From positions 9,183,979-9,247,978 of the forward strand of contig CAJINV010000003.1 in assembly GCA_905178155.1 (NCBI GenBank): 64,000 nucleotides of DNA. Direction: 5' to 3'. Every line of letters starts with the position of its first letter. Position 1 is the stretch's first letter. Made by a program: the position numbers and the translations under genes. This stretch comes from Amoebophrya sp. A120 (taxonomy: Eukaryota; Protista; Dinoflagellata). A model generated the notes under the pieces. The model saw only the letters and a program-made list of their open reading frames with translations, did not search any database and was not told the DNA's origin. Positions 181 through 61,268 of the stretch are shown here, piece by piece.

Positions 181-3100
181 CTAGAAGTAGGGGCCAGCCT
201 TCCGGACCTCTAGTGGGCACCTGTCGGCATACTCAACGAAGTTGGCACGAAAGAGTTCGTATCCTGAGTAAAAACGTACCCACACCATAGTCAAGATGGG
301 GAATCGGCTAGACAAATCCACAAGTTTTGGCTGTTTTGCATGACAAATTTGCATTCGTAGTGTAGTGCTGTTCGAGCTAGCTCAGCAGCATCACAGATCT
401 AGCATACCATGCTGATTGGAGCATGACAAATTGCCAAACACGACTAGAAAATGCTTCTCATGGGGCTCCGCATGAGAACCATTCTCAGCATGCAGATTTG
501 CATTACAACTATGGGGTGGGGACGTTTTTAAATACGATAGTTCGTAGAGCTTGTTCAAGGACGTGTCGTAGGCCTTGGGGTCGGACCACGACTTTCGCGG
601 ATTCAAGATCTCTATGCTGTGCAAAAGTATCGTACTCGTATTAATGCAGGTCTTGCATTACAAATTTCTTTGTCAAGGCAAATCAGCATTACAAATTTTA
701 TTTCTCATGCTGAGAAAATTTGTAATGCATTTATACGAGTACGATACTTTTGCAGTTCATAATCTCGCTGGGCACGCCCGGGATGCTTTTCGGCATCTGC
801 AGCCCAAAGAGCGGCATCTCTTCAAACTCGGTTTCCAGTATGGGGCTCTCAAACGTTACTACATTCTCAACTGTTACATGGTTTGTCATGCACGATTTGT
901 TACCACCAGGATCGCCACGATTAAGCTGCTTCGCATGACAAATATTTATCCGAAGGGCTAAACAGCATCTAAATCTGTGCCAAATCTGTAATGCAAAAGG
1001 CGCAATCTTTATCTTCCCCCTTTCACTTTCGCCGTTCTTGCATTACAAATTCATGTAACAGTTGAGAATGTAACATTTGAGAACTCCATATCCAGGATGC
1101 TCTCGTTGTGGATCGCGTTCACCAACTTTCGTGTGTGCCTGCAATATCAGCAATAGTAGGAATAAATACTTCGCACGCCTAAGTTTAAATGATCTTTCGA
1201 AATTACAAATTCGGTTGAACTATCTACAGATGGGCTCAGATATGGCAATTCTTCGTTGCACAGCTCAGACTCATTCACTGCACCGGAGGTCGAACCACCA
1301 CCTCCAGTTCCACTATGCCAATTGGTCTTGCTTTTGGTTTTGAGTGACTGACCACAGGGAAAACAATAAGGAGTGGAGAAAAAAGAAAAACTCCTGACAA
1401 CTCGAATAAAAATGGGATCGTACTTGATTTCCATGCGCTTTCCGACTCCGTAGCCGCCACCAGACCAACCCGTGTTCAACAGGTAGGCGTGACAGGTGTG
1501 CTCCTCAAGTTTCTGGGCCAGCATCTCGGCGTACACAATGGGGTGCCACACTAGGAAGGGGGCTCCGAAGCATGCACTGAAGGTGGCGGTCGGCTCCGTG
1601 ACGCCCTGCTCGGTCCCGGCCACCTTCGCGGTGTAGCCCGAGATGAAGTAGTACTGCACCTGGGCCGCGGTCAGTTTACTCACCGGAGGCAACACGCCAA
1701 ACGCGTCGCAGCACAAGAGGATGATGGAGCTTGGGTGACGGTCCACCTTGGCCGGGATCATGGCGTTGGGGATGTAATGAAGCGGATAGGCCGCCCGGGT
1801 ATTCTCCGTGATGCTGGTGTCGTAGTAGTCGATGACCCGGGTGGTATGATCGAACACCACGTTTTCTACCACCGCCCCGAACCGGATTGCGTCGAAAATT
1901 TCCGGCTCTTTTTCGCGGGAAAGGTCGATGGCCTGTAGAGAGAAAAAGAAGCCGCTCATCCTTTTTTTTATAAACTGGTAGTGCTACTGGTGTGTAGGTC
2001 ACTATATGTAAAAAGTACACTACTCATCTTAATCAACGTAGAAAAGGCCCGATGGCCGATCCACGACATTTGCACGCAGAACTGTGGCGCGGAACTTTAC
2101 GCCTTCGGATTTTCCTTTCTTCAGTTATCTCCCTACCTAAAGTTGCGCACTGCATTTTGATTTTTGTATCTACGTGGTAGATACTTGAGTAGCAGGCACG
2201 AAGCGGCCCCGCGAAGCTTCCTTCGAAAGGGTAGTAAAATCAAAAATCTGCACCTTTGCGTAGCACCCGCCCTCGATGTTGAAAACGCCAGTGTCTGTCC
2301 AGACATGCTCATCATCGCCGATGAGGTATCGGTCCGGGTCCGCAGAAAGGGTGGTCTTTCCGGTACCGGAGAGGCCAAAGAAGAAACTCACATCGCCCGA
2401 CTTCCCAACATTGCAGGTGCAATCCACTGCAAATGTATCATGTTCATTTTCCGATCGCACATACGCGCATACGCTGATTCCGACGTGTGCCGGTTGAAGC
2501 AGTGTATTTTTTTAGTTGCAGAGGATGAAAATGTCAAAAGGCTGGCAAATCTCAATGATTTATACAAATATTGCGACTTCTACACATGAGTATGATACTT
2601 TTTCAAAGGATAGGAACTGTGTAGCGGCAGTTGGCGTTGTTGCGGCATCGCATACCTGTTGATGAGTATTTGCATTCTTGCGTGATACTCAAAGTTTTGG
2701 CAGATTTTTTTCTTTTTCTTTGCGAGGATAAGGAGTCATTCAATCATATGACAAGCACTAACTTCTATCAAAAAAAGTTCAGTGCTCTCTTCACCCGCTC
2801 CAACTACTTAACACCAACTGCAAGCACGACGCTCTTCCGTGATAACGATAGAGGAATGGAATGAGCGAGACAGAGGCTGGTACAACCAACAGAAAAAAAA
2901 TCTCGGCTTACATCATGAGGGTGAGGATTCCCTTCTTCATTTCCCCAGCGTACTCAGTGCCCAGGATCACCATCTCCTTCCGGCGAAAGTGCATGCAGAC
3001 GGAGGTGGAGGAGGTCATTCCCTTCTTTTATCATACTGAAACCAGTCCCTGCTCTCAGTCCTAGATTTGCAAAATACTGGCATTCTGAGCTGGAATAGTA

Positions 3101-3499
3101 TGCTTAGAATCCTTGGGCCGTCTTCCAGAAACAGAATGAATACCCTAATAAACATTTTTTAATGCAGAGAAGTACTCCTGTAAACGCGTGGTCAAACTTG
3201 ATGTCAGGGCAACCGTGATGCGAGCGCGCTTCAAACCGCGTCGCGACTGCCATCCCGTTCCCGTGCTTGTAGAAGACTAAACATTCTAAATGTAGCGGAC
3301 GCTTTGCAAAGAAAATTTATATTTATCGCTTTTCAAGTTCTGCGAGCAGGGCGCTTTCCATTTGGATAAGGTGTAGCGGTTGGCGGGAAAGCAGCCGGCG
3401 TTGTAGATGATGAAGTCTGGGCTGCCAAACTCCTCCTTAGAGTCCGGCATGACCAGCATGTTTTGCATGAAAAGTGCGTGGTAGGCCCGAGACGTGATC

Positions 3500-3531
<32 letters not shown>

Positions 3532-4395
3532 CCCTGCGTACGCGTCCACAACGTACACTTTTTTCAGGGAGTTGAGATAGTCCACCGCACGTTCGCGGTT
3601 GATCAGAAACGATTCGTCGTCAAGCTTGATATTCACCTGTCGGTTAGTAGTTGTTCTAATTTCAATTTCTAGAACCAACGCTCCGACACACATGCAGACA
3701 TCGTACATAATGCCTAGAAGGATCATTTTTACCAACACCAGGCTGGCGCGTTCTATTGACGGCACCACTAGCGACGGCAGAAAACTATCATGTGACTCAA
3801 CTTAAGTGGAAGAACGAAACCAGAACGTACCTTTCCCCACCAGACTTCGTTTGTGAACGCCCACCAGCCGATGGGTTCATCAACAATCCGCTTGTCCGCT
3901 GGAGAGCGACCTGTCTTCGCCCCACTTGAAACAACGAGCGCTCCGGTGTTCGAGATGTAGCTACCTTCCTCTGCACGCAGCGCCTCCTCATACCTGTGAT
4001 TTGGACACCAAACATTCTTGGACTTCACCGGCGAAGTAATTGAAGACGTTTATTCAGTTTCTCCATGTACTTCATGAGCAGGTTAGAAACCGGATCCTGA
4101 AACTTGTTACTTAAACATGAAAAATATGTTACAAAATCGCCGGGGACGCGTTGTGCACGATTTGCTTGACCTTGAGCCCGGTGCTCTTGGTGAGTTCCTT
4201 TTCAAAGCGTTTCTGTGTGGAGAACTGCCCCAGGTCAAACTCGTCCTGCTTACTCATCTGAAGCGGTCCCGGGGTCCGTTCGTAGTGTGCCAAGTTCGCA
4301 TCGATCTGCATGCGCAAGGCCTCCAAAAAGTCCTTGCCCGCATCGATCTTCATCGTGCCGGAGGCACGCTTCGGCAATTCTGGAACGGCCGACAT
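181..4395 (-). CDS. PCK1: Phosphoenolpyruvate carboxykinase (ATP), multi-exon
   Basis: Motifs [95 protein letters not shown]. The C-terminus [27 protein letters not shown] is recovered only after removing three TIR inserts. ATG at 4395, stop at 181-183. Confidence 0.95.
260..539. mobile_element. TIR introner-like insert in PEPCK (280 bp), TSD GTTCG
   Basis: TATC...GATA ends; imperfect IR aaaaacgtacccacaccatagt / actatggggtggggacgttttt; GTTCG at 255-259 and 540-544; removal gives LYE-LFRANF. Confidence 0.88.
613..761. mobile_element. TIR introner-like insert in PEPCK (149 bp), TSD ATCTC
   Basis: IR tgcaaaagtatcgtactcgtat / atacgagtacgatacttttgca; TATG...CATA ends; ATCTC at 608-612 and 762-766; removal gives PSE-ILNPR. 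Confidence 0.9.
839..1090. mobile_element. TIR introner-like insert in PEPCK (252 bp), TSD TCCAG
   Basis: About 40-bp IR tatggggctctcaaac..acattctcaactgttacatg / catgtaacagttgagaatgt..tttgagaactccata; TCCAG at 834-838 and 1091-1095; removal gives SIL-ETEFEE. Confidence 0.9.
2421..2612. mobile_element. Degenerate TIR intron in PEPCK
   Basis: Eroded IR aatccactgcaaatgtatcatgttcat / atgagtatgatactttttcaaaggata lying between LPLHSS and CNVGKSG; flanks GGTGC/GGAAC are a degenerate TSD. Confidence 0.6.
3029..3368. mobile_element. Probable highly degenerate TIR intron in PEPCK
   Basis: TATC...GATA ends with residual ccctgctc/gagcaggg IR between NRYT and GMTSSTS; no GT donor visible. Confidence 0.45.
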
Positions 4396-6178: not shown

Positions 6179-9100
6179 CTAAAGCGTAACAGTGTTTGTT
6201 GCTTCTGTGAGCATGATTTGGAGCAGGGCTGCAGCTTTCCGCGGGCTCAGTTGGACGAGGTCGGCGAGTGACAGTGAACTCTTTCCCGAGGCTGGCACGT
6301 TTATCGGGAGAACCGATCCTCCTTTAGAGAAGAGCAAGTGGTCCGCGGCTTCGGGACCCGCTCCTGTGGTCCGGACTGACGAGGAAGAAGCCATAGCCAG
6401 CCCTTGGTAAGGATCTGCTGCGGTGTCCATCGACTTGTTCTTTCGGTTGTACCAGTCGCCGGAGGTGGCAACATGTGCGGCCCCGTCTGCCTTGCGTTGA
6501 CTTTGATCTACCTCGCGAAGCAAGCGGGCCGCCCCCTGCAGACAGTCCATATCAAATGCAAAAATGTCTGGGTCTGGAAGATTCTAAACTTGTAATGCTG
6601 TCTCTGGATCCTAAAAAATTTGTATTGCATGACCAGCAAGGGGACTCCAGTTTGTGCTACGCGGAGAGGGCATTTCTCATGCGGTAGAGGCATTGCAAAG
6701 TCCTCTAAAAATCTGTGATGCTAGGGCATGCATCACAGACATCATGGGCCATTCAAAATATGCATGACAAACCTGGCAATCTTCCAGACCCAGACATTTT
6801 TGCATTTGATAGTCCAAAACTGGGAACAATTTTCGCTGGTCATTCGCAATGGCTATTGTGAGGAAAAATCCCCCCTCCCCATATCAAAAGGAAGTCCCTG
6901 ATGCTGGGTTTGCGTATACAAATCCGGTCTGTCTTGCAGTAGAGGACAGCAGGCTCCTGCCAAGCCTGAGTAGAGAGCTTTTGGCCTAGGCGCTTAGCAT
7001 GGCAAACGTTTATGCTGTAGGCCCAACAGCATCACGAACCGCCTGCATAATGCGGCAGAGCCTGTGGAGTTGTCTTCTTGGAAGACAGACGTGATTTGTG
7101 GTCTCAAATCAGCAAGACAAATTTTCGGAAACATACCTTCTCGATATGGGGAGGGGGGATTTTTCCTCTCAGTAATGGCTCGCTGGAACTCAGTGCACAT
7201 TCGCCCGACTTCCTGCAGTTTCTCGAAGGGCGCTCGCCGAGCAGTCACCAGCATTCGACTCAAGAAGTCATATGCGAACTGAATCGGACCCGCATTGATG
7301 TACGACCGCTCGATGGGAGGAGGCATATTTCGGCTCGACAAAAGTTCTCCATCTGAAAAGAGAAAAATTCAAATGCATCTAAGCGTCAAACTATTGGTAC
7401 GAATTGCCATTGCGCACCAGCAGCATTGTAGTAAGTAAATTCATCACATGCGTAGACCTAAAGACACGGTGCCAGTACAAAATCACAATCTTTCTCAGCT
7501 ATCTCGATCGACGCCAGCGCATACTACTTACACGGCTCGCATCATCAACTTTCTGCGAACAAATTCTACCGACGGCGTAAGCGTTTTCAACCCAAAAGTT
7601 GCTAGAAAGAGAAAGCCCTTCAAACAATAGAAATAGATGAAAGTTCAATCGTACAGATGCTGCCCTGCTGGTTGGCGGACGGCATGTAGACTTCTTTTCT
7701 AGCGACCACGTGATCCTGGGTAGCCGCGGGCACAACCCCGTTCTGTAAGCATACCATGGAGGTGAACGGTATTCCGCCTACGGTCCACTGTGACGGAGGC
7801 TCGCATAAGTTTCCTGCATGCACCAGGTACCCAGTCTTGCCTGCGTCCTGCAGGACTCCTGCGGCAAATCCCATAACGGTATCGACTCAAAACCTTAGCT
7901 TCATGGCCTAATTTGTATGTCTATGTCTAAGTCTATGTCTCATCAATACTAAGTATTTCATTTTCGAGAACACGGTAGGTGTTGCAGTCGCGGAAACGCA
8001 GAAAAATAGCAAAAAAATTGAACTTCGTTGCTGCAGCTGCATCCGCAACAAGAAGATCAAGGAGCAACTACATCGCCACTACATAATTATAATCAAAATA
8101 TAGTGCCGCCACAATCAATGTCAGCCATGCAAGGATAATATGGATAGGACCGGAGAGTAATAAAAAATGGAGCTGAGGCTTCCGTCGTCGATAAGTGTAG
8201 GCTAAGTTACAGTCGAAGTTGGTAGGCATGCCTGACCTGGCTTGATAGACCAAGGTGTGCGGCACTGTTTCGAAGTGGCCCTTGAAGAGATCCAGCTTCC
8301 GGCGCCGCTCAATTTCCATCCCCACCAACGTAGCTAGCAGCACCTCTGTGGACACGTTGTTCAGGTCGATCACACCGGTGCTTGGGGAAACATTGCTACA
8401 CAGCTCCTCCTGCACGGTTCGCGGGAAGGCTTGAAACAGGGCCCGAGACCACGTCTTGAGATGGTTGAGCAATTCGTTTCGCTCCTGCGCGGCGCCCGAA
8501 GCTCCGCCGAGTGCCGCCGCTGTCGCGGTCGTTGTGGGATTAGAAGTCGTCGCGGAAAAAGCTGCAGCTGCACTCGATGTCGTACTATGTTGCGATGGTC
8601 CGGAGACGCCACTCTCCGCCGCCTGTCCGAAATTCGACGCACCGTCCGCGGACGAGAGCGATGTGCTGACCTGGATCTGGCGCAGAATGCCTTCGATTTC
8701 CTCGAGGAGGTGCCTCGTTTGCGGCACGGACCGGAGCAACGCCGACGGTAACAAGACGATGCCAAAGTGCAGATTGCGGCTCGCCCGGGCCACGATGACA
8801 TCGCAGATCATCCGGGTGAGATCTAGGAGCGACAGTCGTTTGTGCGCCATCTCTTCCGAAAGCAGCACCAAGTTCGGGTGGCAGAGCAACGCAGTTTCCA
8901 GCGTGACGTGGCTCAGAGCCTGTGACTCCCCCTTAACGCGCACGAAGAACCACTGCTTGCGCGAGGTGGCGGCCTCGCACCACAGGCTCCCGGCGATAGA
9001 CGCGAACACCTTCGTCACAGTGTCGAAGCCGATGCTCTGCTGAATGAAGGGGAAGTCGTTGTCCGAGGCCACGGGGATCCCAAGTACCCGAATGTGGGCC

Positions 9101-12100
9101 AGCCTTGTATGGAACTGGGAGCTTCCTCAAGTGCTACTGTTACATGGTGCTCAACTGTTTCTGTTACTGACAACAAGATAGAACTGCTTTGTCTAAACTC
9201 GTGTCACGTCAGACTCAGAAGAACAACAGAAACAAGTCAAAAAATGAAACAGAAAGGATGACGGCAAGCATCAAGATCAGGCTGTGGCTATCGAGTTCTT
9301 GTGCGTGATCTTTGTTATCTTTTCACCTATTTGTGACCCTCCGCACCGTATTTCAAACAGACACGGCGCCCGCTCTTCGTTAGCGCTGCTATACTTGCAA
9401 ACACCCAACACACAGCGAGGCTGTGGAGGCACGGCGTCACGAGGCCCTCCTGAGCAGTCGCGACATCAAGTGGCGAGCGTTGGAGGAGAAGAGCGCGCCG
9501 GAAATTGGAGCCTTGGCAGGCCGGCTCTTGCGTGGGCTCGCTAGAGTTGTAGCAACAAGAGGGCGCGCACAAGGCGGGCAACACAGAGCGAGTACACTAC
9601 GGCGATAGGAGTACCTGGGCGGCGCCTTTGTATCGAGCCGGGCGCTGTGTGTACTACGTGAAGAGTGGCGCCCTTTTCCAACAACCACCAGCATGCCCCG
9701 CTGAGCGAGCCAGCGCTGTTCTTTGGGCTTCTCAAAATTGTCCGGCGCCATGAAGAAGATGCAAACCAGAATCATCGTCCTTGAGACTTTACACCATACA
9801 TAAAGATAAATCGCTACGCACAATATAGCACGCAGTTGAGGACATTAACGACTGCACAGGCCGTACTCCTCATCGGCGAGACAGGCCTCCGCCAGCAGCG
9901 CTGTATCAAGCTGGGACTTCAGATTCCCCACCACCACGAGCGCATCCAGCTGAAACCTCCGAAGGGTCTGCAAAGCATCCGAGTAGTCTTCGTCGGTTTC
10001 TGTGAAGTTTCTTTTTATTTAATCTACTTGCTTAGCTGTGTCAAGTGGTCGTCTGTGCGCACATTGATTTCCATTGGTTTATTTGCTGCTGATTGAAACT
10101 GTTTCGACGATATCGAGGAACTCGTCTCAGCAATGCATGGCCGTAGCGCAGCAAGTGGAGCAGGAAGGAGCATTTCTATTATTCACATTTTGAATCGTCA
10201 ATCTGTAATTCATCTCTGTCAGATGAAGATGGGATCAACATCATGTCAATGAATTGTATGTATTCTTGTACGCAGCGTGTGTCCGAATTCGCAGAGCAAT
10301 TCTTGTCCGCCAAGGTTCCGGACCGAGGCGATCTTCTGTGCGTCCAAGCTCCGAACCCAACCGTTCTTCAGGCCGACCCAGCCGCCGACGAATCCAACGA
10401 GCCGGCCCGGGGGGTCCATAGACGATACGTAGTCGAACAGTCCGGCGACCACGGAATGGAAACCCGGCGCCTGGTGACTTCCAAACATCACCCCGATACT
10501 CACGGGCGTAGAGTTCGCCACCTATCAAGTTGAGAAACCGAGACATCTTCTTGATCCAGTCAAAACCCACGAGCACCCAGGAGCCTCGGCAAGTAATTTT
10601 TTATCGTATGTAATGCAATTTCATCACGAAGTACAGTTGCGATGCGCAGGCCCTCTTCTGGTCGTGATACCCGTTTTGCTCAACATTTCCAATTTAGGCG
10701 AGCAACTGTAATAGCAAATACAAATTTACATACAGTACGCCAATCACGATCAGAATCAGCGCATTGCCATTACATTTTGGAAAGAGTCTCCTGCATCTCC
10801 TGGATCTGAGGTTTCACTAAGATGTAATCTGCAATTCACTTTCATACCAGCGTGTGCTGCTTCACGAGCTGCGACATTTCTGTTTGCATTTGGGTTGCGA
10901 GATTAGCGGCTCTTATCATGTCAAATGACCACAGTCAGGCTTTCTTTCTATTTCATCGGGATTTTTCGGTAACGCGAAGGTCAAGCACCTTTTCCAAAAA
11001 TGAATCGAACGCACAAAAAAGCACTTGGCTCATTACTCTTAGAAAACCTTTGTAATTCTCGTTTTCCAGGGCGCCCGAGAGATTTCTTTGCTGAAGATTC
11101 CGAGGGGTCCTTCCGACAAGTTCTGCGCCAATTCCAGTGGGAGTCTCCTGCGCTCCAAACAAAGGGTGCAGCTGGTGCACATCGACCGCAGAAGAGGCGG
11201 ATAGATTACGCGAGAGTTCATGTGCATGAAGAAGTGTGGGGCTGCTTGGCTGTTCTGCGTAGTCCTGCAACGCGCTAAAGTTCTTCGCGATTTGCGGCGG
11301 GGGATACTGGTTCACTACATTGGGATCCCGACTGCGAGGCAGGGCAGCTTTGGACCCCAGCAGTCGCAAAACACCATGGCGCTCGCGCTCGGCCAGCGCC
11401 CGTTGTGAGGGAGAACTTCCGGACGTAGATGCGCCGCCGATCGGCTGAAGGAGCTGACCGTCGTGGCTGGGAGTGCGCGGTTGATGCAACGCATCAACAA
11501 CGCCGAACCCTGCACTAGTCCCGTCGACACTGACGGGCGGCCGGGCGACAGGCGCAGACGTCCGGTGGTCCCTCGGCACTGCTACTTTCGAATCTGCGTC
11601 GGCCCCAGCAGCTGAAGGATCTACAAAAGGCACGTTGGATGCCGTCGATGCCTCGATATGACCTCCGCTGTTTACGTGCCTCATAATAGCAGGAGCCTGG
11701 CTAGCTGCGAGCGCCGAATCGGGCAACTCAACATCCCGCCTGGCGAAGGCTGCCTCTACCGTTGTCGAGGGGGGCGCGGCGAGCCCGTCGGCGGCCGTCC
11801 GGTTCCACAGCGTTTCCGAGTCCGCAATTTCGTCCGGGTCTGCCTTCGCGAGCAGGTGTTCCTCCGCTTCGTCGTAGGTCAAAGGGGGCTTTACCGGGTG
11901 AATCGCGATCGCGGGGAGGTGCGCCGTAAGCGGAAGGGCCGCCTCCACCTGGAAAGACATGCGAGCAGTGATCATCTCCTCCACTACTTGCATCGGCTGT
12001 TTCAAAACGTCCGGCAACTCCGGTTCGTACCGCACTCGTTCCTGCTCTAGCGGAGACAAGCAATCGAACCCCCGCACCGAGACGGACACTAGAGGCTGAC

Positions 12101-22547: not shown

Positions 22548-24366
22548 GCCCTGCGAACAAGTAGTTCCACAATGAAACGGACCTTTATTCTGGGCACATC
22601 AACAGCACTGGTGCAAAAGCCGTTCATCTTTGTTGTTACTTGGTCTCACAGTACAACACGGACTGTACCCCATGCAGACATCAGCCCCGCTCGCACTCGA
22701 AGTGGAATCTTTGAGCATTTTATTTTTATCCATCGGAATCTTTCTCGTATCATATCATGTCCACATCGCACTTCATGGAGAGCTTGAGCTTCGCGTTCGC
22801 GAATCAATGCACATATTTCGGCATGGGCGGGGCGGGTGGGACAAATTTCCTCTAGATAGCACTTGCTGGGACTTGTCGTTTACCAACCACTTTCGGAAAA
22901 CATGCGCAACAGTACCCCACACCCCCTATTGTGCAGAAAAGTAAGCCTAGAGCATCGCCAAAGATATGAGTACTCACATCGCGACGCGATTTCAGTATAG
23001 TACAGATACGCGGCTGAGATAGCAGCCATCATTTGCACATGAAAAACGCAGCACGAAACGCTTGCACGGTCCACCGAGCTTCGGGCTAAGAGCGCGCTGA
23101 ACCGAGCCGGTAAGCACACTGCATCAAGCCGGTAGGTACACGTCGAACCGGGCCAAAGTAGTAAATCTATCGGACTGCGCGCCCGAGACGGAAGAAGGGT
23201 TCATGATTTGCTCGGAACAGCCGACGGTCACGCAACTGGCACAGCCACAGAACTAGCACAAAAAAGGAAATCAAAGCGGGATGCCTAGGTGTACTTTTCT
23301 GCGTCGTGATATTACTGCTACCATGTGCCTAATCTGGTCTCCCGACAGGTTGGACTCGTCAGGATTGCCCTTCGCATGGGCTCCGCAGTTTTCGGAGAAG
23401 ATACCTGAGAGTTTCCGAATAAAGTCGGCTGTCGCCGTCTGATCTCTTATCAATGGACCACAACTTTTATTCCTAGTGTAGAAACAGTTGCTTATGCTTT
23501 AACTTTATACATTCATAGATACAACATAAATCAAAGCGAGATCGAGCCACTTCGATAGTTTGGAGGGAATGCAGAGAAACTACCAGGCGAGTTAGGAACT
23601 GTCAGCGCGCTGCGTGTTCTTTTCCTTTTAGTTTGATTAACTGCAGTGATTTGGTCGCCAGCCGCATCACTCGTCTTATGCTTATCAGAACGCTGCCCGT
23701 GAATGAATAAACCAAAATTAATCGGAGCATCTTACTTTTTTTTTTCTCGGCCACGTTCCCCCCAGTCATGGTTCCGTAGGAGCGGGGAAAAAGTTCAGAC
23801 AGGAGCTTCCGCTGGCGTTGTTTAGGTAAATGCTTGGCCCCCGCCGTGACAAGGAGGATTACCGCAAGACAAAGCCAAAAAAAAGTCCTGACCGCGGCCC
23901 CGGAGTCCTTCCGCCGAATCCGGCGTGGTGCAGCGAGACTCGCGGTGGAAGCACCACTCGGGAGCGACTCTTCATCCAGGTCGGGATCCTAATGGGAGGC
24001 GTGAAGTTTCATATGACGATTGATCATGGGTTATTCTTGCTCTAAACTATAGAATTACTGAATTAGCAACTAACACCCTGACAAATCAGAATTCTTCACT
24101 AGTAATTGCTTCAGCAAAAAGAGCATTAGGCGACCATACGAACAGTACGTGCTCGACTTCGACGATGGTTTCGTATGCAGTGCAAGTGTATCTGTCTGAG
24201 TCCCGAAAAGCCACGGAAACTTGCTCGGACATACATACGGCAGTGTGTTTGTGCTCAACTACACAAGACAACAACTTAATGTGTCACATCATGACTAGCG
24301 AAATTCTCCTTGCTCGGCTTTCCATTGATGCGCGCAACCTGGAAAGTGACATTGGAAGAAAAAAGC

Positions 24367-39000: not shown

Positions 39001-40218
39001 GGAACTAACACGGACACTGCATGCTCTGGCAGTTTGCTTACCGCCCCTACTAAACTAGGACTTTTATCTATATCACAGTGACCACAGACCGCCTCGTCTT
39101 TGCTTCAATAACGAACGCGCACGGTTTGTTATGATGTAGCTCCTCGGCACTCGTGGACGGTTCGTCCTCTTCCTCGACAACACCCACAAATCCGAGCCAT
39201 ATGCGGGGTAAGAATGTCCCCAAACCTCACCCGATTATGAATGTGCATCTTCCAACATCACGCATAAACTACTGCGCTAGCAGCTCGACGCACGCGTTTT
39301 GCAAATAATCATGAAGGTGAAAAAGAACTCGCTTCTAACGAAATCCGACGGCTGCGAAGAGAAATAATATTTCTACTCTTGCTCTAGTCTACTTCTAATC
39401 CGCATTATAGTGTTCCACCTTCGTAAGGCTTGCTACTCGCCCTTTCACCCTATGCATGAACCTGCCATCATCACAGCACCCTCATTTGTTCGTAGAACTT
39501 GAACATCTGGATTTGTACAGCACAGCTGATCTTGGGGATGTTTGGGTGGGGATGGTCTTCGAGATGATAACCCGGAAGTTCTCTTTTTCCGGAGACGAGA
39601 CACGGCTACTGGAAGGATGGACCTTGTGCGGAGAAGATGCGGCGCCGATCGATATTGGCGAGCCAGCTGGTATCACAGAGAAAGACACATCCATGCCATG
39701 TAGTTCTTCGAGCCATATAATTAGGCGTCCACGTTTTTTGGCTGTCCGTGCTTGCGCCACGGTCCATCCATCTCTAGTTGTCGTATTTTCGGTGGAAAAA
39801 ATGGAATTGCGGTAGCCATTATCACGAATTTGAATTTCGGCGTCAGTAAAAATTAGATAATAGCGATAGCTAGCAAACAAGGGACGCGCACGGTTGCACT
39901 TTTCTGTGTGATAGCTGGTGGCGCCTTTCTGTCGAAAGGAGAAATGTCGCTGGTTCGGACCCGACTTGAGGTCATTTTCATGTCCGCACCGCCGCTGCTG
40001 GGATGAAGGTGCGACTTGGATTTGCCGGTGTGAAGATGCCGCTCTTTGATGTCTTTTTGTGGCGACGACCCGTCCCGCACACTAGTGACCCCTCCCGGCG
40101 CATCTTCCAAGACTGCAAAGGCCTCCAGGTGCCCCACCGTATCCGTCGACGCAGTCTTCTGCAGCTGGCTCGGGCCCAACACGCGCCTCTGCTGGAACTC
40201 CGAATGCGTGCAGCCCAT
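36089..40218 (-). CDS. Probable N-terminal exons of the kinase gene (MGCTHS start)
   Basis: Several ORF blocks on the minus strand; ATG at 40218 gives MGCTHS, an acylation-type N-terminus; exon chain not fully resolved. Confidence 0.4.
36390..36651. mobile_element. Introner family A copy 3 (262 bp), TSD TTTGC
   Basis: Family A TIRs; removal gives open frame RIPRVPVQ-TQCSEFELL. Confidence 0.93.
36887..38153. mobile_element. Non-autonomous TIR transposon/MITE (1267 bp), about 120-bp TIRs, 3-bp TSD TAG
   Basis: gagcgaggtaacaaacccaaacgagaacttcgc... at left and its exact reverse complement at right; TAG at 36884-36886 and 38154-38156; GC-rich interior with no credible ORF. Confidence 0.9.
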
Positions 40219-45999: not shown

Positions 46000-46260
46000 T
46001 ATCAAATGTAAAAATGTCTGGGTCTGGAAAAAAGCAACTTGTCATGCTGCATTTGGATTCCAGAAAAATCTGTATCGCATAAGTACCAAAAGGAGTGCAG
46101 TTTTTGCTACGCGGAGAGGGCAATTGTCATGCGGAATAGGCATCAAGAAGCTCTGAAAAATCTGTGATGCTAGGGCATGCATCACAGACATCAGGGCTCA
46201 TGCAAAACGTGCATAGAAAGTGTCAGAATGTTCCAGACCCAGACACTTTTGCATTTGATA
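46000..46260. mobile_element. Introner family A copy 4 (261 bp), TSD CTCCA
   Basis: Family A TIRs and interior similar to copy 1; host gene not identified. Confidence 0.93.
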
Positions 46261-48743
46261 CTCCATGTCATCACAATGAAAAGCGCCCCAGCCACGAAAT
46301 CAAAATTACGTCGAGACCGCCATTGAATGACAAAATAACGGCCCGAAACACCTATTTGAATTGCCACTTATCTGCTACGTGTAAAAGTACATTTAAAGTT
46401 TCTATTGAGTACGAATATCGTTCATCGCATACTTCTAAACGGAAGATTTGCATTTTCTCGCTCAGGTTATCTTTATTCCTGGCGTGGAAGGCTTTTCAGT
46501 GTGATACACGCCGGCCTTGATTTGCAGCAACATGGTATTCCAAAACGTGCGCGTTTCTTTATGAGAGCGTCAGACACTTATTTGCAAAAAAACTTGACCA
46601 ACTTCCTGAATGCAATTCTAAATGGCAGCGCAAAGCTTGCCATTGAATTGCGCAAGCAGGGGTATGCGTAGGGGTTCAGGCTGCAACTACCCTTTGGCGT
46701 GCGTGGAAGCCTCGGCTTCTGTGCCGATCGCTGTTCTGTGTGGTCGTCTCCTTTCGCAGGGTACTAGGTAGTTGAGAATCGCGACAAAAAGGTCACGCAT
46801 TTTCCACAACTGCTTGGAGAGACCTCTTTTGCAGGGGGCTGCAAGTAGATGCCAGTTGCGAAAAGAAACTCTGTCCGCAAGTTTTCATTGCAAAAGGTAT
46901 AATTGGGCTGACGGTCCAGTATAGCTATAGCCGAAATCAGCACGGTCGAGCTGGCTTTACCCTGGACGCTTCGGGTTTTGCGTAACTGGGAAAGTTGCAG
47001 TTTTTTTGCGATGTAGTATCTGACGCCCTCATATCCTTCATGCGTATTATATTGCACAAATCTCCCAGCCCCTCTTACTTTATTCAGTGTTCGAAGAACA
47101 TCGTGAGCACAAACAGGACGATCAGTGCCAGGAATCTAGTTAAGCTTAGTGTTAGCCTCCGCAAGACAACATCCAGCTCACCAACATGTCACTGCTTTTT
47201 ATTGCTTATTTGACTAGTACTCTTCGCCAGCTCCATCCGTGATTTGTCACGAACGCCACGCAGTATTGAAACGCAACGACGGAAGGAGTGCGTGATGGTA
47301 CTTTATTTCGGTCATCCCAGACCATGAGGGGCCGGGGGATTCGTGCACGCTGCATACCGCGAGTCGCACCAGCAGTCCGTAGCGGACCGGGACCCATCAT
47401 GCTTGGTTTCCGTGGCCCACGCCTGATCATATTTAGCTGGGTCCTTCCTTGTATATGGCGATGCAGCAACGCGAAGCTTCCAACAGCTCCCGAAGACGAG
47501 AACCAGATAAGGCGTTCTCCAGAACAGGGAACGCGCAAGATCAAGTGCTAACATGATCCTATGGCTGCTAGCATCTATCAACACTGCAACCAGACTCTTC
47601 GCTAGGACCTTAAGTCTTAATGCTTCGCGCAATTGAGGAAATAGATGACATCGATTCTCTTCGCGACACGTAGGACGAAAAACATGCAGTGATATGCTGC
47701 TGTCTTATACGTTGCACCTCGATAGGGGTCAAGAAGTATTTTCCTAGGTACGGAGGACCTACGACCAACCCGGCCGGGTGAACCTTAGGCCCTCTGATCC
47801 AAAAGTTAATCTGTGATACTACAGCAAACCGTCCTAGTTTCGTCCAACCGGAGAAAAGTCTTTTTTAGTTCTGTTTGCGATTTTCTTAAAATTTCTTTAA
47901 CACTCATTTACTCGAGGAATATTACGAATAGAGGACACAGAGACAGATCTCACTACTACTAGCTGTAGCTGCTACCATGCGTGTGCACGTCCATGGCGAT
48001 GGCTCCAACAAAATCAAAAAATAGAAGACGAGCGATGGCAATCGGCAATGATCTCCGTCTCCGTGCCTCAACAAAATCAAACGGCAAGGGCACGGGCACG
48101 GCCGACGCGTAATATTACAACGAATTACGTCAAAGAAAGTGGACCAGGCACAGACTTTGAGAGCGTCTATCTTCACTGGAAACCGAATTTAGTGCAGAAA
48201 GCCAGCACTTTGGTCCTCCATACGATCTTTGTTCTGTTGTGGGTTGAGCAAGCCACGCGTGTGGGCAAGTCCAGACACGGAACGAGAAAGAAACAAATCT
48301 TCCACTCCGAGCAAAATCAATCAAAAAGCTCCCGAAAAAAACGTGCGTCTTTGATCGTCCCTTGTGAGGTCAGCCCAAAAATTTCGTGGGCGTTGTCGAT
48401 TTCCTGCTAGCTATTGATATGCGAACACGATTAGGGTCGCCGTCGTTCGACGTTTGGATGACGCAGTCGCTATTTCCCCCAACGGTGCTCCTGGGCGGGA
48501 CCCCCTATCTCGCACGACATTTTTCCGCCCCTGCGCAAAGTGTCACTTTTAAAGTTATCAATATTCTCTTGTTAATGTCATACACGTACAGGTTCATCAT
48601 GGTCGCTGTCACAGGCTGGTTTGAATTCGCAATCAAGTCGCTCATCTACTGCCAAGAAACTTCAACATAGTGTGCTCTTTCCGGCGTCTTGTTCTCTCGT
48701 TCCAAACAGAACATCAAACGCCATTCCTGCAGGTCGCTACTTT

Positions 48744-52655
<3,912 letters not shown>

Positions 52656-53654: not shown

Positions 53655-56600
53655 CTAAATTTTCCAGCTCTCGGTCTCTTCTTCTTCCGAGACAGCTATG
53701 AAGGGCCGTACGACAGCGTCGATCATTTGGTAACCGCAGCTGGGACAGTCCTCTTGTGTCTTCAAACCGAGTTTCTCGGCACACTCCAAGTGAAAGGCGT
53801 GGCCACACAAGAAACAGACGAACTTCTGCTCGAGGATGCTTCCCCCGCACAATTCGCACACGGCGTCCAGCCGGAGTTCGATGGTCCGCTCAGAAACATA
53901 CAGCTATCAAAATGAAAAGCTCCGGCCCTTGAGGGAGAAGTCGTGCACTCCTTGAGGGGAAAACAAATGCGCCGCGTTTTGATTAGGCCAGCCTGTGAAT
54001 CTTCATATCGGTGCTAAGTTCGCATGAGATGAAGCATCAGCGTCTACTGATGGATTTCCATTTATTCTGGGAGTGCATTTGCAGGAACAATTCTTTTCAT
54101 CATGATAGCTGCAAATCTTTCTTCAGAACCTGCGCGGCTTTACGATGCTCTCGCATCTCGGTTCGCAGCTCATCGATGGAACGCTCGCAGTTTTCCAGGT
54201 ACTGTGCGATCTCCTCCTGAAAGCCAGACACCACCAGAGGCTCCGGAACGAACGGCAAAAGGTCTCGAATGGTCACCAGATGTCCACTATGCTTGTGAAA
54301 AAAAAAGAATAAGAAACGACCTCGTGCCCACCGGAAAATATTCGGGCAACGTCGCTAAGCGTGGTAAATACGACTATGCGGTTACATTCTGCCGCACTTA
54401 CTTTCGCGACGTGCTATCATGAACAACAACAAAAGTTGTCGGAGTCAGGGCTAGCGAGTCATGACATAGGAAACTCAAAAAACAGTACCGTCGGACGTTG
54501 ACTCTTCAAATTAATACAGGAGCAGCTTTTTGATTTTGACAAGAACTTGAACAAAGCATGACAAAGAGGCGCTTCAACAGCTTCAGCTCGTACTACGCCA
54601 TACCTGCCATGTAAAGTCATTTATTTGCGCATCCATGAGGCGCCGTTGAGTTGTTGGGGAGGCGTGTTTCAATTTCAATTAACACAGGATACCCGTGAGA
54701 GCTCAGGAGGCTGCGGAAGGTGCTCAGCTGTTCTACGGGAGGCAGGGAAGCAACCCGATCCGCCTCGTACTCGACAACCTGCAAAAACAGTCGCATCATA
54801 TGAAAGACTCCATCCAACACAGTTAAAGGAAAAGACCTAGATCTGTTCGACGGCGCGAACAGCCTGTAGTCTCGGACGGCACGATGAAAGCGAGAGCCTG
54901 ATAAATTGGCCTGTATTCAAAGACGAGTCGCGCATGCTCAGTAGCTAGATTGGTACTAACGTACTTCCTCAGGATTGGGATTCGCCTGTTGTGCTGGCGT
55001 TCGTGGGTCCTGATGGAGAAATGACAAGACGATTGACGTACAGGATGCTTTCTGTACACTTACTGCACAAGTGGTCGAACAAATCGATGCAAGACAAACT
55101 GCTTTTCTGTATCCATCGTGATGGTGGTATAGAAGCTTGAGTCATTCTGATAAGCCGCGTTCGTTCCTCTGGGTGCGCAGGCCTCGCAGCGTGCTCTTTT
55201 GCTAGTTCTACGTTTCCGCTCGCCAAAGCCGCCTCGACAGCCTCCTCGTGATGTCCCAGCATCGCAAAAAGCAACACCTGTGCGGTCTGGTGGATTGCTT
55301 TCCGGTCGCGAAGATGATCCGCTTGCGCTGTTGTAGCACTGTTTACTACGATAGAGCGCGCTCCTGCAATTTCGGCCTTGTGGTCAGGAGACCAGTTTCC
55401 TCCTGTCTCGTCCAGGCTGATACTTTCGTCTGACAGAACGCGTAGAGCAAAAATGAGATCCAGGCTCCGTGCCACGTCGTCACTCTGAAGAAAGCGCAAA
55501 AGAATGTCGCCTTCCCACTGGCGCGCGTAAAATACGAACAGCAGCTTCAAGTACTCTCCGCGCTCGAGGTCCGACATCTCCAACTTGCGGAGTGCAAATT
55601 CCAGGTACCGGATCGCTTCATGTGCGTGTGGTGTTTTTGTCGTGGGCCCCCCGCCTGTTCAACAATCGAATCAAGTCGCAGCATGTTGCTGCTGCACATT
55701 TTTCGTATTCTAGTTTTTTTTAAATATCTACGCATCAGACACTAATCACGAAAATTGCTTTTTGACTTCGTCCAAGTCAGTTGAGTCGGATGTGGTGGCG
55801 CGCCTTGTAGTTACTTATTCCACTCGTTTCGAAAATGGAGGCTTGCTCGTGGCATCTTGATTCGTCATGATCTGCATCTGCAAATACGAGCTGAGCTGAG
55901 CGATTACTTTGTATGTGCGAGACGTGATTAATGCAGCGAAGTGAACTTCAAATTGCAGCGATCCTGATCTCGCAAAGACAGAACAAACAGAAACAACAGC
56001 AACAAGTAAACTGATACGTATGTAAGTGATTTTCCTATAGGAACGCAGTCTGTAAAAGGGCAAAAAGTTGAAAAACTCAATCGCATAATCACACACGATA
56101 AGATCCAATTCGCAAGTAGCTGCGTGCCCCCTCGTCAAGGCCTGCACGCTCAAAATTCCAACTCAAGCTTAATGGCGCTCGACGCACCCTTTCCATGCAG
56201 AAGTTGCAGGGGAAAAGCGAGGTAGGGTGAGTGCAACGCAAAATGTAAATGAAAATATCGAAAGCGATATATAGGAGGAGTCTTTCCCAGAAAGCGCACG
56301 GAATGGAACGGGGTAGACAGTCAAAACAATCAGAGCTATGCTACTTAATTTGAAAAAAAAGGACCTGCAGTGTCGTCCGGTGTGGGCGAGTCCCGATACG
56401 CGTACGACGCCAAGAGACCGAGACTCAGTTCGACATTGGCCCCATTAGATTCATTCACTGCAAACATCTCACTGCTCGTGAAAAGGAAAAGGAAAACGCA
56501 AGCGCGAGATTCTCTTCCATGCATCATCTGCCCGCCTAAAATCATCTGCGTTGGTTGCTTCACATGGCCGTGCAGCACTGTACTTGAGTATATCAGGCAA

Positions 56601-59600
56601 GGCGACTAAATATTTTGAGCGACGAGCACAGCGCAAAAAAACCCCGGGTACCTCCTCCCTAACCTGAGCTGCCTGCTCCAAAACTTCGAGGACGTACCCC
56701 CCCCCCCCACATTCCGCCGCCTCTCCAACCGCGACCACCTCCGTTCCGACCCAAACCCACGTCTCCAGGCTCCAAACTCCTCTTCCACACGTCGGATCAC
56801 CTCTTCCACAATCCACACCACCTGCCTGCCAATCGAAGCAACCTCCTTAACAGGAGCCTCAACCGACTTCTCCCCGGCCCAGGCAACCTCGTCTCCCGCA
56901 CCTCGACCTCCGCAGCCACAACGCCCACTCTCCGGAGCAGCTCCCCTCCTCTGCAGGTCCACGCGCGGCCACCCCCCCACCATACCCAAAGGCAAGCTCT
57001 AGACAGAAGAGAAGGTGGTGGTCTGCAGGTTGGAGAAGGAAGTCCGGTTTGACTTTTTTAGGCATGATCATACATGGCCCCGGCGTTCCAACAGCTGATC
57101 TCGATGCTTTCTTTGGGCTGCTTTGGAAACATACAGGTTCAGATTGCTGGAACCTCGGCCGAGCATCCATGTGACAAATGCAAATCGAAATCTAACGAGC
57201 GACAGAATCTGCGTTTTCGTCCACCTTCGTGTTTGTTCCAGGTATCATGTAACCTTGACATGTTTGCAGATCATAAAATTCAGGTTTTCGCAACAGTGAC
57301 ACAAGCTCGACAGGCGCTGCTTCAAAGAGTATGGGAGCGTACTGGCCGAGAATCTGCACAGCGGCCTCCTCCGACTCTTCAACCAAGACCCGTTCGATGC
57401 ATTCTAGGAGTTCCGGGTACTCTCGCCGAGCGACGTAGTGTCGTGCGAGCATCGCGAAATCGCGGAGGCGCCAGGCGAAATACAGAAATTCATCGGTGCA
57501 GTCGTAGCTTAGAAGCAGTTGGTACACCGTGGCGGCACAGTCCAACCGCGCTGCCTGATTCAGAAAAAATAACAGCAAATTTCGGGCGGGGACAAATACC
57601 AAATATAGCCGCCGGGGCGGGGGTAGTGAGGTCGTGGGCGTTTTTTTGCCGACCGCCGCCTTGGCCGCGGCTTTGCTTTTTATGGGCTCGCCATACCACC
57701 GCGCGTAACGTTATGCCGCACGGTATGGCGCCCACTTGGGAAACGTCGCAAATTTTGGCACATTTCCAAAATTCCTTTCCGAAAGCCAGCCCCGATGCTA
57801 TGGGGCCGATCCGGGTGCCACGGGGGGCGCCCAAAAAGCGAAGAAAAACCGGGCCCATAGCATGCGGATTGGCTTTGCGCGTCTGGGGCGCTTTTTATTT
57901 TTCGCGTTTTTATTTTTCACGCCGGCGCTTTTTGCAAAGCTTCCCAGGCTCTAAAACCGGCGAAAAGGCGGCCGCTTTCGCGACCGCCCAAAATGCTCCG
58001 AAATCGCGGCCGTGCCATGCTGTTTCGCTGTTCTGATTTTGGGCGCGTTTTTTGCGCGCCCCTTTTTGGGCGCCCCAAATCGCCAGAAACCAAGGCGGCG
58101 GGCGCCTCAGAAGGGCGCCCCTTTTGCCGGCTCCCCTGCGTCGTTTTATCAAGCGGGAATCGATAGTTTTCGACCGGGCTTGTTTGTTGGCAAAGCTCCG
58201 GCCGCTTGATAATTGCCAATCTTTTTCGTCAAAAAACACTCCCGCCCGCTTGAAAACTGCCGGTCGTTTTTCAGGGGAGATGGCAAAAAAACTCCCCGGT
58301 TAGAACCGTTCGGTGACCTCACTACATACAACCTCCTCGAGCTTTGCGCCGTCACTTGTTCTCGACGAAGCCGCAGGCTGCTGGCCGCCGCATGAGCCAG
58401 CTTCTCTGCCCGCTTGCGCGTCGTGCCCACAAAGAATGTTCAAGCAGAATTCGATACCCCAGACGCCGAGGAGGACCATCTGAGTCTGGGGCTCGGGTGT
58501 CCCCTTGGCTAAGTTCTGCATCTTCAATTTCAAATAGTCCAGCAGAGCGAGCGCAACAACAGCAGCGGAAGCTGGGGAGGACATGCTCGCCACATGCTGC
58601 CCGTCATAGACCCGAACGGACTCTGACTGCACCCGGTCACTGGTGGGGTGGCGCTGGTGTTGAGCTTCCTTCTGCCGACCGTCTGTGGCAGTTCCCGTTT
58701 TCCCCCGCAGACGGGCCACCGAAGAGCTCACGGCCCCGAGCCTGGCCCCCTTGGGGGAGGATCGCATGCACTCGAGAAACGCCAAACAGATTGACTCGAA
58801 GCTGCGGATCCAGGATGGCAGTTGGCTGAAAAAGATCGCAGCGCGGCCGTAGTCGCCTTCCCGGAACAAAGCCTCCGCGTGGCTCTCGATCACAAAAAAC
58901 TTGTTCTGCCCGTCACAGAGTTTCAGAGCATTGGAGAAGTCCTGCTTCTTCAGCAGTAGCCGCCAGACGTTGGCCTTTTCCTGATTTACCGTGACATCGT
59001 ACACAAAGGCGTCGCATACCAGCAAAATCTGCCCGCTAAACTGGTCCGCTCGGGGAAGGTCGCACAGAAGTTTGCCCGTCCGGAACACGCTCACCAACTC
59101 GCCGTACCGCGTAACTGGCAGGCTTTCGGCATAGACCACCTCGGCGGTAACGCGAGAAAACAGCACCAGGCTGCGAGCCGGCTCCCCGAACAGTACCAGA
59201 AAATGGTACTCGGTGCTGGCAAAACCCAGTAATTTGCTCGATGGCATGCTCGCTCCGAGTGAACTCACAACACCCTCAGTGTCAACCTACACAAGTAAGT
59301 TGGGATTTTCAGAACAAGGAGAACAGTACGACCACTACGACAACTCCATGATGCTGCAAACTACCTGCACCCAACAGAAGTTACTCCACCGAATTGAGCC
59401 TATCAGCAACATTGGAAATACCAGGGCGCTCCCCGGGAGCGTGCTGGAGGAAATCGTGGTCGGGCCCGCGTAAGGAATGACAACGTGGGTAGTGGGGTCC
59501 TCTATCCGGAGTACTACCAGTCCAAATGTCGTCACCCACGCCATGGAATCTTGTAAGTACAGGGCAGATTGCTGTTCGTTTTTGATTTCATATAATTTAC

Positions 59601-61268
59601 GTTCTTTATTCTCTTCAAAAATTCAAGCCATACTAAGGCGCCCTTCACGTTCCGTCAAACAAGCCCGCAACCCAACGGGGCCGACACCCCATTGCTCGTG
59701 ACTACTACGGTAGCATCAATCTACTTAAGTTGATGAACAACTCCTCGCTACCAGTTCATGATTGAAATTAGTAGACAGCAAAAAAACTAAAAAGACACAC
59801 TTCGGTACCGCAGGCGTATTAGCACTTGCCACCGCAGCCGCCCCGCCCTCCCTCGAAGCCAGAACCGAAGCAGGCAAATGATGCACGCGGCTGTACGAAG
59901 TCGCTGCCGGCACTTCCTTGGCGGTTTTTTCGACAGAATCGAAGAAGTTGACAAAATATCGGTCAAAGTTGCGCACGAAGCTTTTGTCTAGGAACAGAGG
60001 AGTCGGGTTATTGTAGACGAGCAGCCGCTTCTGAGTGGCGAGCCACAAGGTGTAGCGCACGACGCTCACGGTATTGCTCTGGTCGCCGGAAGCGCTGCTG
60101 GCTTGACGCTGGGGACTGAGGGTGTGCATCACACGAAGATCCGTGATGGGTTTGCGCACATCTTCGGAAGCTTGCCGCACTTGGACGATGTTGAAGTCGT
60201 GAAAGTTGGACACGAGGTACAGTGCGCCCGACTCGAGTCCGACAAACGCGTGGCAAGAAGAAATCTCTGTGCTCCCGGCGAACGGGACATCGCACCATCC
60301 CACAGCAGTGACCGACAGCTTGCGCAGGCCTTTGACCTCATTTAAGATCACGGCCGGTGTTGACGAAGAGGCACCCTCATTCACCGCCGAAGAACCACCG
60401 GTGGCGCCGCGTCTGGTGCTGCCCACACCCACATAGTAATGGTGAAGCTGCTCCGTTTGCACGAGGCAGTGACGGTGGCAGTCGCTGGGGAAGAGACGGC
60501 GAATAACGTCATTGTTACCACCCCCGCCACGGCCTCCCCCATCCCCGGGCGCCTGCGCTACAATCTTGTTGGTGTTCGGATCGCGCCACTGCAGCACTTC
60601 CAGTGGTTCCCCCGGGCCGCTGCACCTGAAGATCTGTTCGCCGAAGGATACCACGAACCCGTTCTCCAATGGTGCTACCGCGTGCACTATCAAATGTAAA
60701 AATGTCTGGGTCTGGAAGAATGCAAGACTTGTCATGCATATTTCTCATGACCCCTGATGCCTGTAATGCATGACCTAGCATCACAGACCTTTAGAGGGCT
60801 TCCTGATGCGCCTTCCGCATGAGAAATGCCCTCTCCGCGTAGCACAGGCTGGACCTTTCTTGCTGGTCATGCAACACTAATTTTTTTAGAATCCAAAAAC
60901 AGCATCACAAGTTGCATTCTTCCAGACCCAGACATTTTTACGTTTGATATGCACCCGCTTGCCACGACTGCTGAGGTCGGGCGAGATATCAAATGTAAAA
61001 ATGTCTGGGTCTGGAAGAATTCATGTTTGTCATGCTTGTCTGGCATGACTCTTAAATCTGTCATACACGTTGCCCAAGAGCTCCGTTTTTCTGTGATGCA
61101 GAAGCGCAGTTTGTCATGCAGAATAGGCAACACCTAGAAGCTCAGAGACTTGTCATGCTGAGCCAGCATTTGAAGTCTCATCATGAGACGCCACCCAGCA
61201 TCACAAGTTTCCAGACCCAGACATTTTTACTTTTGATACGAGAGTCGTAGGGACAATGAGGGCGCCAT
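53655..61268 (-). CDS. VPS18: Vacuolar protein sorting 18 (Pep3/Vps18) homolog, multi-exon
   Basis: TEYHFLVL, EKANVWRLLLKKQDFSNAL, SFESICLAF, AIRYLEF, C-terminal RING-H2 CELC...CGHAFHLEC...CPSCG..IDAVVRPFI...SW. Confidence 0.85.
60688..60949. mobile_element. Introner family A copy 5 (262 bp), inverted relative to copies 1-4, TSD TGCAC
   Basis: Family A TIRs; interior ccgcatgagaaatgccctctccgcgtagca is the reverse complement of copy 1; removal gives GKRVH-AVAPL. Confidence 0.95.
60987..61238. mobile_element. Introner family A copy 6 (252 bp, divergent interior), TSD CGAGA
   Basis: Family A TIRs; removal gives MAPSLSLRLS-PDLSSRG. Confidence 0.92.

Follow-up and report, generated by a model that had tools for sequence, protein, structure and literature searches.

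How tens of thousands of introns that carry no splice-site sequence can be removed from transcripts is the question raised by a 64,000-nucleotide stretch of the genome of Amoebophrya sp. A120 (contig CAJINV010000003.1, positions 9,183,979 to 9,247,978; hereafter the window, in whose own numbering all positions are given). Its genes are interrupted by inserts with complementary ends that start with TAT, end with ATA and stand between 5-bp direct repeats. That these inserts are the introner elements already published for A120 is close to certain, and since they are in print the finding is a rediscovery. As a whole, the data are probably best explained by introners of likely transposon origin that are removed through hairpin-guided splicing of the pre-mRNA, with a remodelled spliceosome as the favoured catalyst. 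The options for removal are narrowed by the fixed 5-bp duplication, the independence of orientation, a likely register of 3-4 nt and the dispensability of an intact repeat, and further by the finding of members of these families in a second assembly, as well as by a shared internal motif.

Elements of the window

The window was scanned for TAT...ATA pairs with complementary ends, which recovered every element named in the preliminary description. A perfect 5-bp duplication was found at 17 elements of 149-344 bp, namely 13 of the 15 listed there and those starting at 6854, 25415, 25709 and 39671 (elements are named below by their first position). Four others (10523, 33337, 46560 and 51698) have a duplication matching at 4/5 positions, and at least six (2421, 3029, 24174, 29058, 46269 and 53905) are more decayed. 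Block shuffles of the window (n = 4) contained no element with a 5/5 repeat, and a scan made without the TAT assumption returned 117 rows vs 67-87 in shuffles, the surplus being mostly TAT elements. All 15 duplications named earlier sit at the ends of TAT...ATA elements. In a departure from the ends given in the preliminary description, one arm of element 6854 ends in GTA; TAT occurs at 39/40 ends of 20 window elements. The longer form TAT-N6-8-AAA was present at 26/40 ends, in 14 of these 20 elements, while the remaining six have it at neither end, and five of these are of the TATGG/TATGA type. Two families, F1 and F2, have several copies each inside the window. Folding of two elements gave z scores of -13.3 (60688) and -5.6 (260).

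The elements are listed below; no strand is assigned to them. The register k is the number of bases kept from the upstream duplicate copy, read from the protein where the two copies differ.

260..539, introner, 280 bp, duplication GTTCG, placed in the final coding stretch of PEPCK (gene on the minus strand); fold z -5.6; 95.6% identical copy at locus L045 of the second assembly
613..761, introner, 149 bp, duplication ATCTC, PEPCK; 98% identical copy at L065
839..1090, introner, 252 bp, duplication TCCAG, PEPCK
2421..2612, decayed introner, duplication 3/5, PEPCK; k at least 3
3029..3368, decayed introner, duplication 1/5, PEPCK; k = 3 or 4
6550..6811, introner of the main family F1, duplication GTCCA; taking it out jointly with 6854 leaves a single open frame
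6854..7174, introner, 321 bp, duplication ATGGC, one arm TAC
10523..10846, decayed introner, 4/5, weak inverted repeat, PFK-like gene, with PFK domains on both sides
24174..24434, decayed F1-like introner, 3/5, 2,140-residue gene; k at least 3
25415..25618, introner, duplication CGTCG, 2,140-residue gene; deposited intron 209 = 204+5
25709..25996, introner, duplication TCGAT, 2,140-residue gene; deposited intron 293 = 288+5
26181..26524, introner, duplication TTGTC, 2,140-residue gene; deposited intron 349 = 344+5
27672..27971, introner of family F2, duplication TCCAC, 2,140-residue gene; deposited intron 305 = 300+5
29058..29495, decayed introner, 3/5, 2,140-residue gene; k at least 2; deposited intron 443 = 438+5
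30624..30835, introner, duplication AACGT, 2,140-residue gene; deposited intron 217 = 212+5
33337..33638, introner, duplication 4/5 (GTGCC/TTGCC), protein kinase; GC-AG reading at k = 1
34497..34761, introner F1, duplication ACGCA, protein kinase
36390..36651, introner F1, duplication TTTGC, lying upstream of the exons for the kinase domain
39671..39913, introner, duplication GCTGG
46000..46260, introner F1, duplication CTCCA
46269..46506, decayed introner, 3/5, 8 bp past the 46000 element
46560..47033, introner, 474 bp, duplication 4/5
48893..49199, introner F2, duplication GTGGT, DEAD-box helicase
51698..52004, introner F2, 4/5 (ATGCG/ATGTG), same DEAD-box gene as 48893 in opposite orientation; k at least 2
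53905..54107, decayed introner, 3/5, VPS18; k = 3 or 4
60688..60949, introner F1, duplication TGCAC, VPS18, inverted relative to 6550, 34497, 36390 and 46000; fold z -13.3
60987..61238, introner with F1 ends, duplication CGAGA, VPS18; deposited intron 257 = 252+5

The 8-bp gap at 46261-46268 separates two introners whose duplications overlap by 2 nt, and removing both together with 46560 gives one open frame and a predicted exon of 3 nt. Additional decayed TAT-ended elements were seen in unnamed genes at 43598-43758, 44501-44786 and from 45349 onward, the part 44501-44581 resembling F1.

Identity with published introners and host genes

Deposited proteins of Amoebophrya sp. A120 matched one exon each of PEPCK, VPS18 and a 2,140-residue protein of the window at 100% identity, and every VPS18 exon and residues 1-1970 of the 2,140-residue protein were placed exactly on the minus strand. 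All genes identified in the window lie on this strand, matching the co-oriented gene blocks published for A120. Three of them were matched to deposited models:

181..4395, minus strand, PEPCK (ATP) gene, carrying 5 elements; deposited A120 model P0002 lacks the last three exons
23313..32132, minus strand, mapped part (residues 1-1970) of the 2,140-residue gene, identical to deposited A120 model P0244, with 7 elements inside
53655..61268, minus strand, VPS18 gene, identical to deposited A120 model P0122

For A120, Farhat et al. 2021 reported 66,565 introns with RNA-seq support, more than 60% of them non-canonical, and 29,850 repeated introns falling into 1,954 families (PMC7789003). Its account of the repeated introns gives inverted repeats with a TAT start, seven loose bases and then three or more As, forming hairpins, and direct repeats of 5 bp, with 3-5 nt over the exon/intron boundary in the published definition (PMC7789003). 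Every feature of this definition that is testable in sequence was found in the window inserts, that is, the location, the TAT inverted repeat, the A run, the direct repeat, the junctions other than GT-AG and the grouping into families, and there is no difference in kind. The preliminary description had only noted that such elements are reported in Amoebophrya; with A120 models identical at 100%, and the TAT start and 5-bp repeats already in print, the link is one of identity and not of analogy. A 2025 PNAS survey counts 58 introner families in A120 (PMC12130899), and among 22/58 rows of its supplement are families of 149, 214, 252-260, 278, 305 and 319-321 bp, which match window lengths, the comparison being one of length and not of sequence.

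The hosts had been described as conserved genes throughout, which held for part of them. A Pfam scan of the frames gave domains in 8/35 and confirmed PFK, kinase, DEAD-box and Vps18. Seven elements, however, among them 26181, 27672 and 30624, which had all been listed before, lie in the 2,140-residue gene. Its protein has no Pfam match and only 3 hits in 1.84 billion representatives, each in clusters named Amoebophrya; introner hosts are therefore not all conserved genes. The PFK-like gene (8068-15800) contains an open stretch of 1,615 codons with two PFK domains.

Removal of an element together with one duplicate

In the deposited model P0244 the element and exactly 5 nt are removed at 7/7 elements. 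The same holds for P0122 at 60987, 60688 and 53905, and for P0002 at 2421 and 3029. When deletions of +0 to +10 were tried, the score against homologues from other strains was highest at +5 for all 8 elements having a homologue, and the PEPCK tail rebuilt by the element+5 rule aligned without gaps to the transcript-derived protein P0003, ending at the same stop. No GT-AG or GC-AG was found on the minus strand in any equivalent register of the 17 perfect window elements (0/17). Among diverged elements, 33337 can be read as GC-AG and 46560 as GA-AG. From deposited models, homology and the literature, removal of the element together with one duplicate is likely.

Copies of these families in a second assembly

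The main terminal motif was found in 145 stretches, all on contigs named JACKZZ01..., in a scan that covered 21/64 parts of the sequence collection; 142 loci with 621 kb were analysed. Here 391 elements were called without regard to flanking repeats. An exact repeat of 5 bp was found at 294 of them, against one element each with 4 bp and 6 bp, and the end profile was TAT-S-N6-AAAA. The 294 elements show 206 distinct duplications with a flat base profile, in agreement with the absence of target preference claimed earlier. For the frame test a codon model was trained on window exons and each flank was called separately. One retained copy was implied in 78/90 elements (of the 294) with confident frames on both flanks (p about 1e-25). 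This test superseded an earlier and weak one based on the longest open reading frame in six frames, in which, for 241 elements, 5 was best in 95, 4 in 62 and 6 in 46. A GT-AG or GC-AG reading could be reached in 7/137 confident coding elements, close to the estimated chance of about 6%. Both earlier statements on removal, that deleting the element plus one repeat restores the frame and that intact duplications never yield GT-AG or GC-AG, are borne out by the window (+5 best in 8/8, concordant deposited models; 0/17). In these loci one retained copy prevails (78/90) and canonical readings stay near chance (7/137).

Near full-length copies of 14/20 window elements, at 82-98% identity, were present in these loci. 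BLAST of the window against the 142 loci matched elements only, so there was no empty orthologous site to check. Rare elements have direct repeats of 8, 8 and 7 bp (L045 6329-6608, L071 6365-6573 and L105 71-325), the L045 one being the 95.6% identical copy of 260-539. Two F1-ended elements with perfect duplications, L049 6001-6972 and L032 3862-4492, measure 972 and 631 bp and have low-copy non-coding interiors, possibly captured DNA.

Orientation, register and internal motif

Orientation was counted only for elements assignable to a window family (100/166, 44/72 and then 111 under three strand-calling rules). In the second assembly, copies of F1 were split between the two orientations relative to the host strand at 20:16, 9:9 and 19:19 under the three rules, and smaller families at 10:14, 4:10, 2:7 and 13:5 under the last rule. 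Strand calls were concordant in 171/212 same-locus pairs of the loose set and 47/51 of the strict set. The window itself has two F2 copies in opposite orientation in one DEAD-box gene, and the VPS18 copy of F1 is inverted relative to the kinase copy. Since the elements sit in both orientations, the signals for removal would lie in their symmetric ends.

The register could be read at six decayed duplications: k is 3 or 4 at 3029 and 53905, at least 3 at 2421 and 24174, and at least 2 at 29058 and 51698. A common register of k = 3-4 fits all six, five of which come from deposited models, and is suggestive at this sample size. The two copies at 3029 match at only 1/5 positions and removal is needed nonetheless; an intact repeat is therefore not required. 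In the second assembly, 43 elements with mismatched duplications gave no flip in AT/GC polarity, and when codons were scored by register in 32 elements the result stayed flat between k=2 and k=5.

The motif YSTVATGC, chosen after k-mer inspection, occurs at 10.1/kb in the 20 window elements vs 0.53 outside them (about 19-fold), with 4/20 elements lacking it. It is common to families with different ends and is found at least twice in 275/294 second-assembly elements, where the opening fifth holds its forward form and the closing fifth its reverse form, so that both point inward.

The main text of Farhat et al. 2021 (PMC7789003) deals neither with orientation independence nor with a register of 3-4 nt or a shared internal motif, although its figures may show the register. 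Nor does that text use orientation (for elements), subterminal, CATG, RtcB or excision as terms in that sense. These added constraints may already be in print elsewhere.

Mechanism of removal

Removal at the level of RNA, guided by the hairpin, is very probable, and for spliceosomal chemistry in a remodelled spliceosome we see about an even chance. In the mechanism proposed here, the element would be inserted at a 5-bp stagger by a DDE transposase of integrase/IS3 type that is provided in trans. In the transcript the two arms would pair whatever the orientation of the element, and the cut sites would be set at constant distances beyond the stem, 1-2 nt ahead of UAU and 3-4 nt past AUA. As these distances sum to one duplicate, the exon would be restored even where the duplication has decayed. 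The catalyst would be the spliceosome, with the hairpin taking the place of U1 and of dinucleotide recognition. Among the small nuclear RNAs of A120, U2, U4, U5 and U6 were found and U1 was not detected, and the mechanism of removal was left unresolved in that paper (PMC7789003). Another Amoebophrya, with GT-AG introns, has U1 according to the account in PMC12005148. A remodelled spliceosome is favoured on the grounds that its other parts are present and that U1 went undetected in the two strains with hairpin introns but is present in the GT-AG strain, so that loss of U1 goes along with hairpin introns.

Several observations weigh against this reading. The deposited models on which the removal rule partly rests count as indirect evidence, and one of them, P0002, runs on into an intron and so leaves out the last three PEPCK elements. 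At two old VPS18 junctions of P0122 (residues 789 and 1016), 6 nt more are kept than the rule predicts, which suggests junction drift or misannotation. The junction bases carry no information, which is hard to reconcile with a spliceosomal active site. Sense-strand G.U pairs showed no robust surplus over A.C pairs (0.51-0.58, p 0.04-1.0 across subsets), and TAT was broken equally often in the 5' and 3' arms (10 vs 9 of 252). Mismatches between duplicate copies were synonymous in 19/34, 26/45 and 21/46 cases, above the expectation for a fixed register in two of the three settings. This is a weak hint of a variable register; the surplus confirms coding constraint and leaves the choice between a fixed and a variable register unsettled. 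No transposase was found in either of the searches described below. The structure-guided removal proposed in the preliminary description fits the data, and we infer it from them. Neither of two tests for selection on the stem specific to the RNA strand returned a robust signal.

Beside the PEPCK model it may be noted that P0002, which runs into the intron in 181-1431, is without the true C-terminal exons, and that these align to the transcript-derived homologue. The two old VPS18 introns lie at 54290-54692 and 56448-57276, and the first also allows an in-frame GT-AG reading. The idea that the 5' arm mimics a donor (N-UAU-S like GUAUG), prompted by decayed 3' arms in the window, was unsupported at scale by the arm counts of 10 vs 9.

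The same elements could also be removed independently of the spliceosome, with a structure-specific RNA endonuclease making its cuts at set distances from the stem and the exons being joined by an RNA ligase, for example RTCB. Such a route would amount to a precise version of animal SOS splicing or of the removal of euglenid nonconventional introns. We regard this route as possible though short of probable, and place it close behind the spliceosome because the junctions carry no information and because of the symmetry. Lack of base preference at the junctions, with GT-AG at chance level, blindness of removal to orientation, arms that are conserved symmetrically, highly stable stems in which both ends are buried (z -13.3 and -5.6) and a predicted exon of 3 nt between two hairpins all speak for it. 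There are precedents as well. In SOS splicing of C. elegans and human cells, as described in PMC12779559, transposons with paired inverted repeats trigger their own departure from mRNA at sites other than GU-AG, with AKAP17A, CAAP1 and RTCB being needed. Euglenid nonconventional introns, which share terminal pairing, non-canonical junctions, repeats like target-site duplications and a likely origin from miniature inverted-repeat transposable elements (MITEs), are released as circles without lariats according to PMC11282704. Neither system is the same as that of A120. SOS splicing is reported as imprecise, leaving indels, and its alleles as mostly purged, whereas in A120 the removed length is exactly element+5 by deposited models and homology, and insertions persist in large numbers. 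The euglenid introns are described with CAG/CTG at +4 to +6, in an unrelated lineage and with circles shown, while the elements of the second assembly have the end profile TAT-S-N6-AAAA, without that motif. The route also gives no account of U1 going undetected in the two strains that carry hairpin introns. A tentative form of it would be a splicing system of A120 that reads RNA shape only, in either orientation, precisely and without the spliceosome, cutting 1-2 nt before and 3-4 nt after the stem. Jointly with it, and no more firmly, YSTVATGC could be a binding site for a protein, either the transposase or a splicing factor. If true, a spliceosome-independent system would have rendered transposon insertions harmless by the tens of thousands, and the endonuclease-ligase route would be a scar-free RNA excision, of interest to intron origins and RNA engineering.

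Ciliate internal eliminated sequences (IESs) are bounded by TA, and one TA is left after their somatic excision from DNA. A similar excision in the transcribing nuclei of A120, put forward in the preliminary description as an alternative, would agree with the transposon origin, the TA-like ends and the exact restoration, but is very improbable. The elements lose both TA ends and keep a variable 5-mer, so that the boundary is a variable 5-bp duplication and not a single retained TA. Where the duplication is down to 1/5, removal of the same length is still needed, so that microhomology is no requirement. The junctions in print were obtained by mapping RNA-seq onto a genome in which the elements are retained, and A120 has yielded no transposase (PMC7789003). 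Amoebophrya is not known to have a separate somatic nucleus. It is even less credible that the junctions are reverse-transcriptase template-switch artefacts and the interrupted genes pseudogenes. A hairpin with a short direct repeat is a classic substrate for such artefacts, but the exons between elements keep clean frames with high identity to transcript-derived homologues, PEPCK shares its stop with P0003, the frame logic holds in 78/90 and elements with decayed repeats also need removal.

The elements also differ from what is described for the introners of Micromonas and Aureococcus and the non-canonical introns of Fritillaria. Those are likewise MITE-derived, with the exon restored by the target duplication, but use canonical or fixed alternative dinucleotides, none of which were found in the A120 elements. 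In the literature searched, which left subscription journals mostly outside, no paper resolved the mechanism or tied A120 introns to SOS splicing, and the available text of the SOS splicing paper (PMC12779559) has no mention of 'amoebophrya'.

Mobility of the elements

The fixed length of the duplication, the inverted ends and the grouping into families lead us to infer that the elements are likely non-autonomous DNA transposons. The earlier claim of non-autonomous elements with terminal inverted repeats (TIRs) and a 5-bp target duplication is supported by the 17 window repeats and the 294/391 repeats of the second assembly. No transposase was found among 13 long TIR pairs with matching flanks in the 621 kb of the second assembly, 7 of which were examined in detail. 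One of these, a 4.2-kb autonomous candidate with a frame of 871 amino acids (L057 6001-10208), was rejected as a host gene between separate short elements with duplications matching by chance. Each of the six other pairs examined was either a series of short elements or lacked coding sequence in its interior, and the remaining six measured 457-666 bp. The TIR pattern had no matches in viral contigs. A transposase of A120 was likewise not found by Farhat et al. 2021, as stated in PMC7789003, and the 2025 survey mentions a family of A120 that has TIRs and shows homology of an integrase-like kind (PMC12130899), which is a lead to the mobiliser. The IS3EU/GingerRoot elements resemble the present ones in their TA..TA (TAY..RTA) termini and in having TIRs of at least 30 bp (PMC10045372, PMC12730594). 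Their duplication is given there as usually 6 bp, whereas in the second assembly it is 5 bp in 294/391 and 6 bp in 1; membership is therefore not claimed.

Other repeats of the window

A GC-rich segment of 1.27 kb at 36887-38153 lies inside 120-bp inverted repeats (92.5%), each with the same perfect 44-nt palindrome, and has neither TAT ends nor an obvious duplication; it is likely another non-autonomous element. The VPS18 intron at 57602-58331 (730 nt) is GC-rich and non-canonical, with TAT/ATA ends, an interrupted inverted repeat and a 284-bp match, 82% identical, in L049/L050, and possibly represents a separate long family. An inverted pair of 46 bp (16762-16807 and 18024-18068), about 1.3 kb apart, encloses a GC-rich region with a 59-nt hairpin at 17550-17608. 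A near-perfect palindrome of 43 nt is present in a DEAD-box intron (50752-50794), and tandem duplications of about 108-115 bp and of 69 bp occupy the window end (63561-63997).

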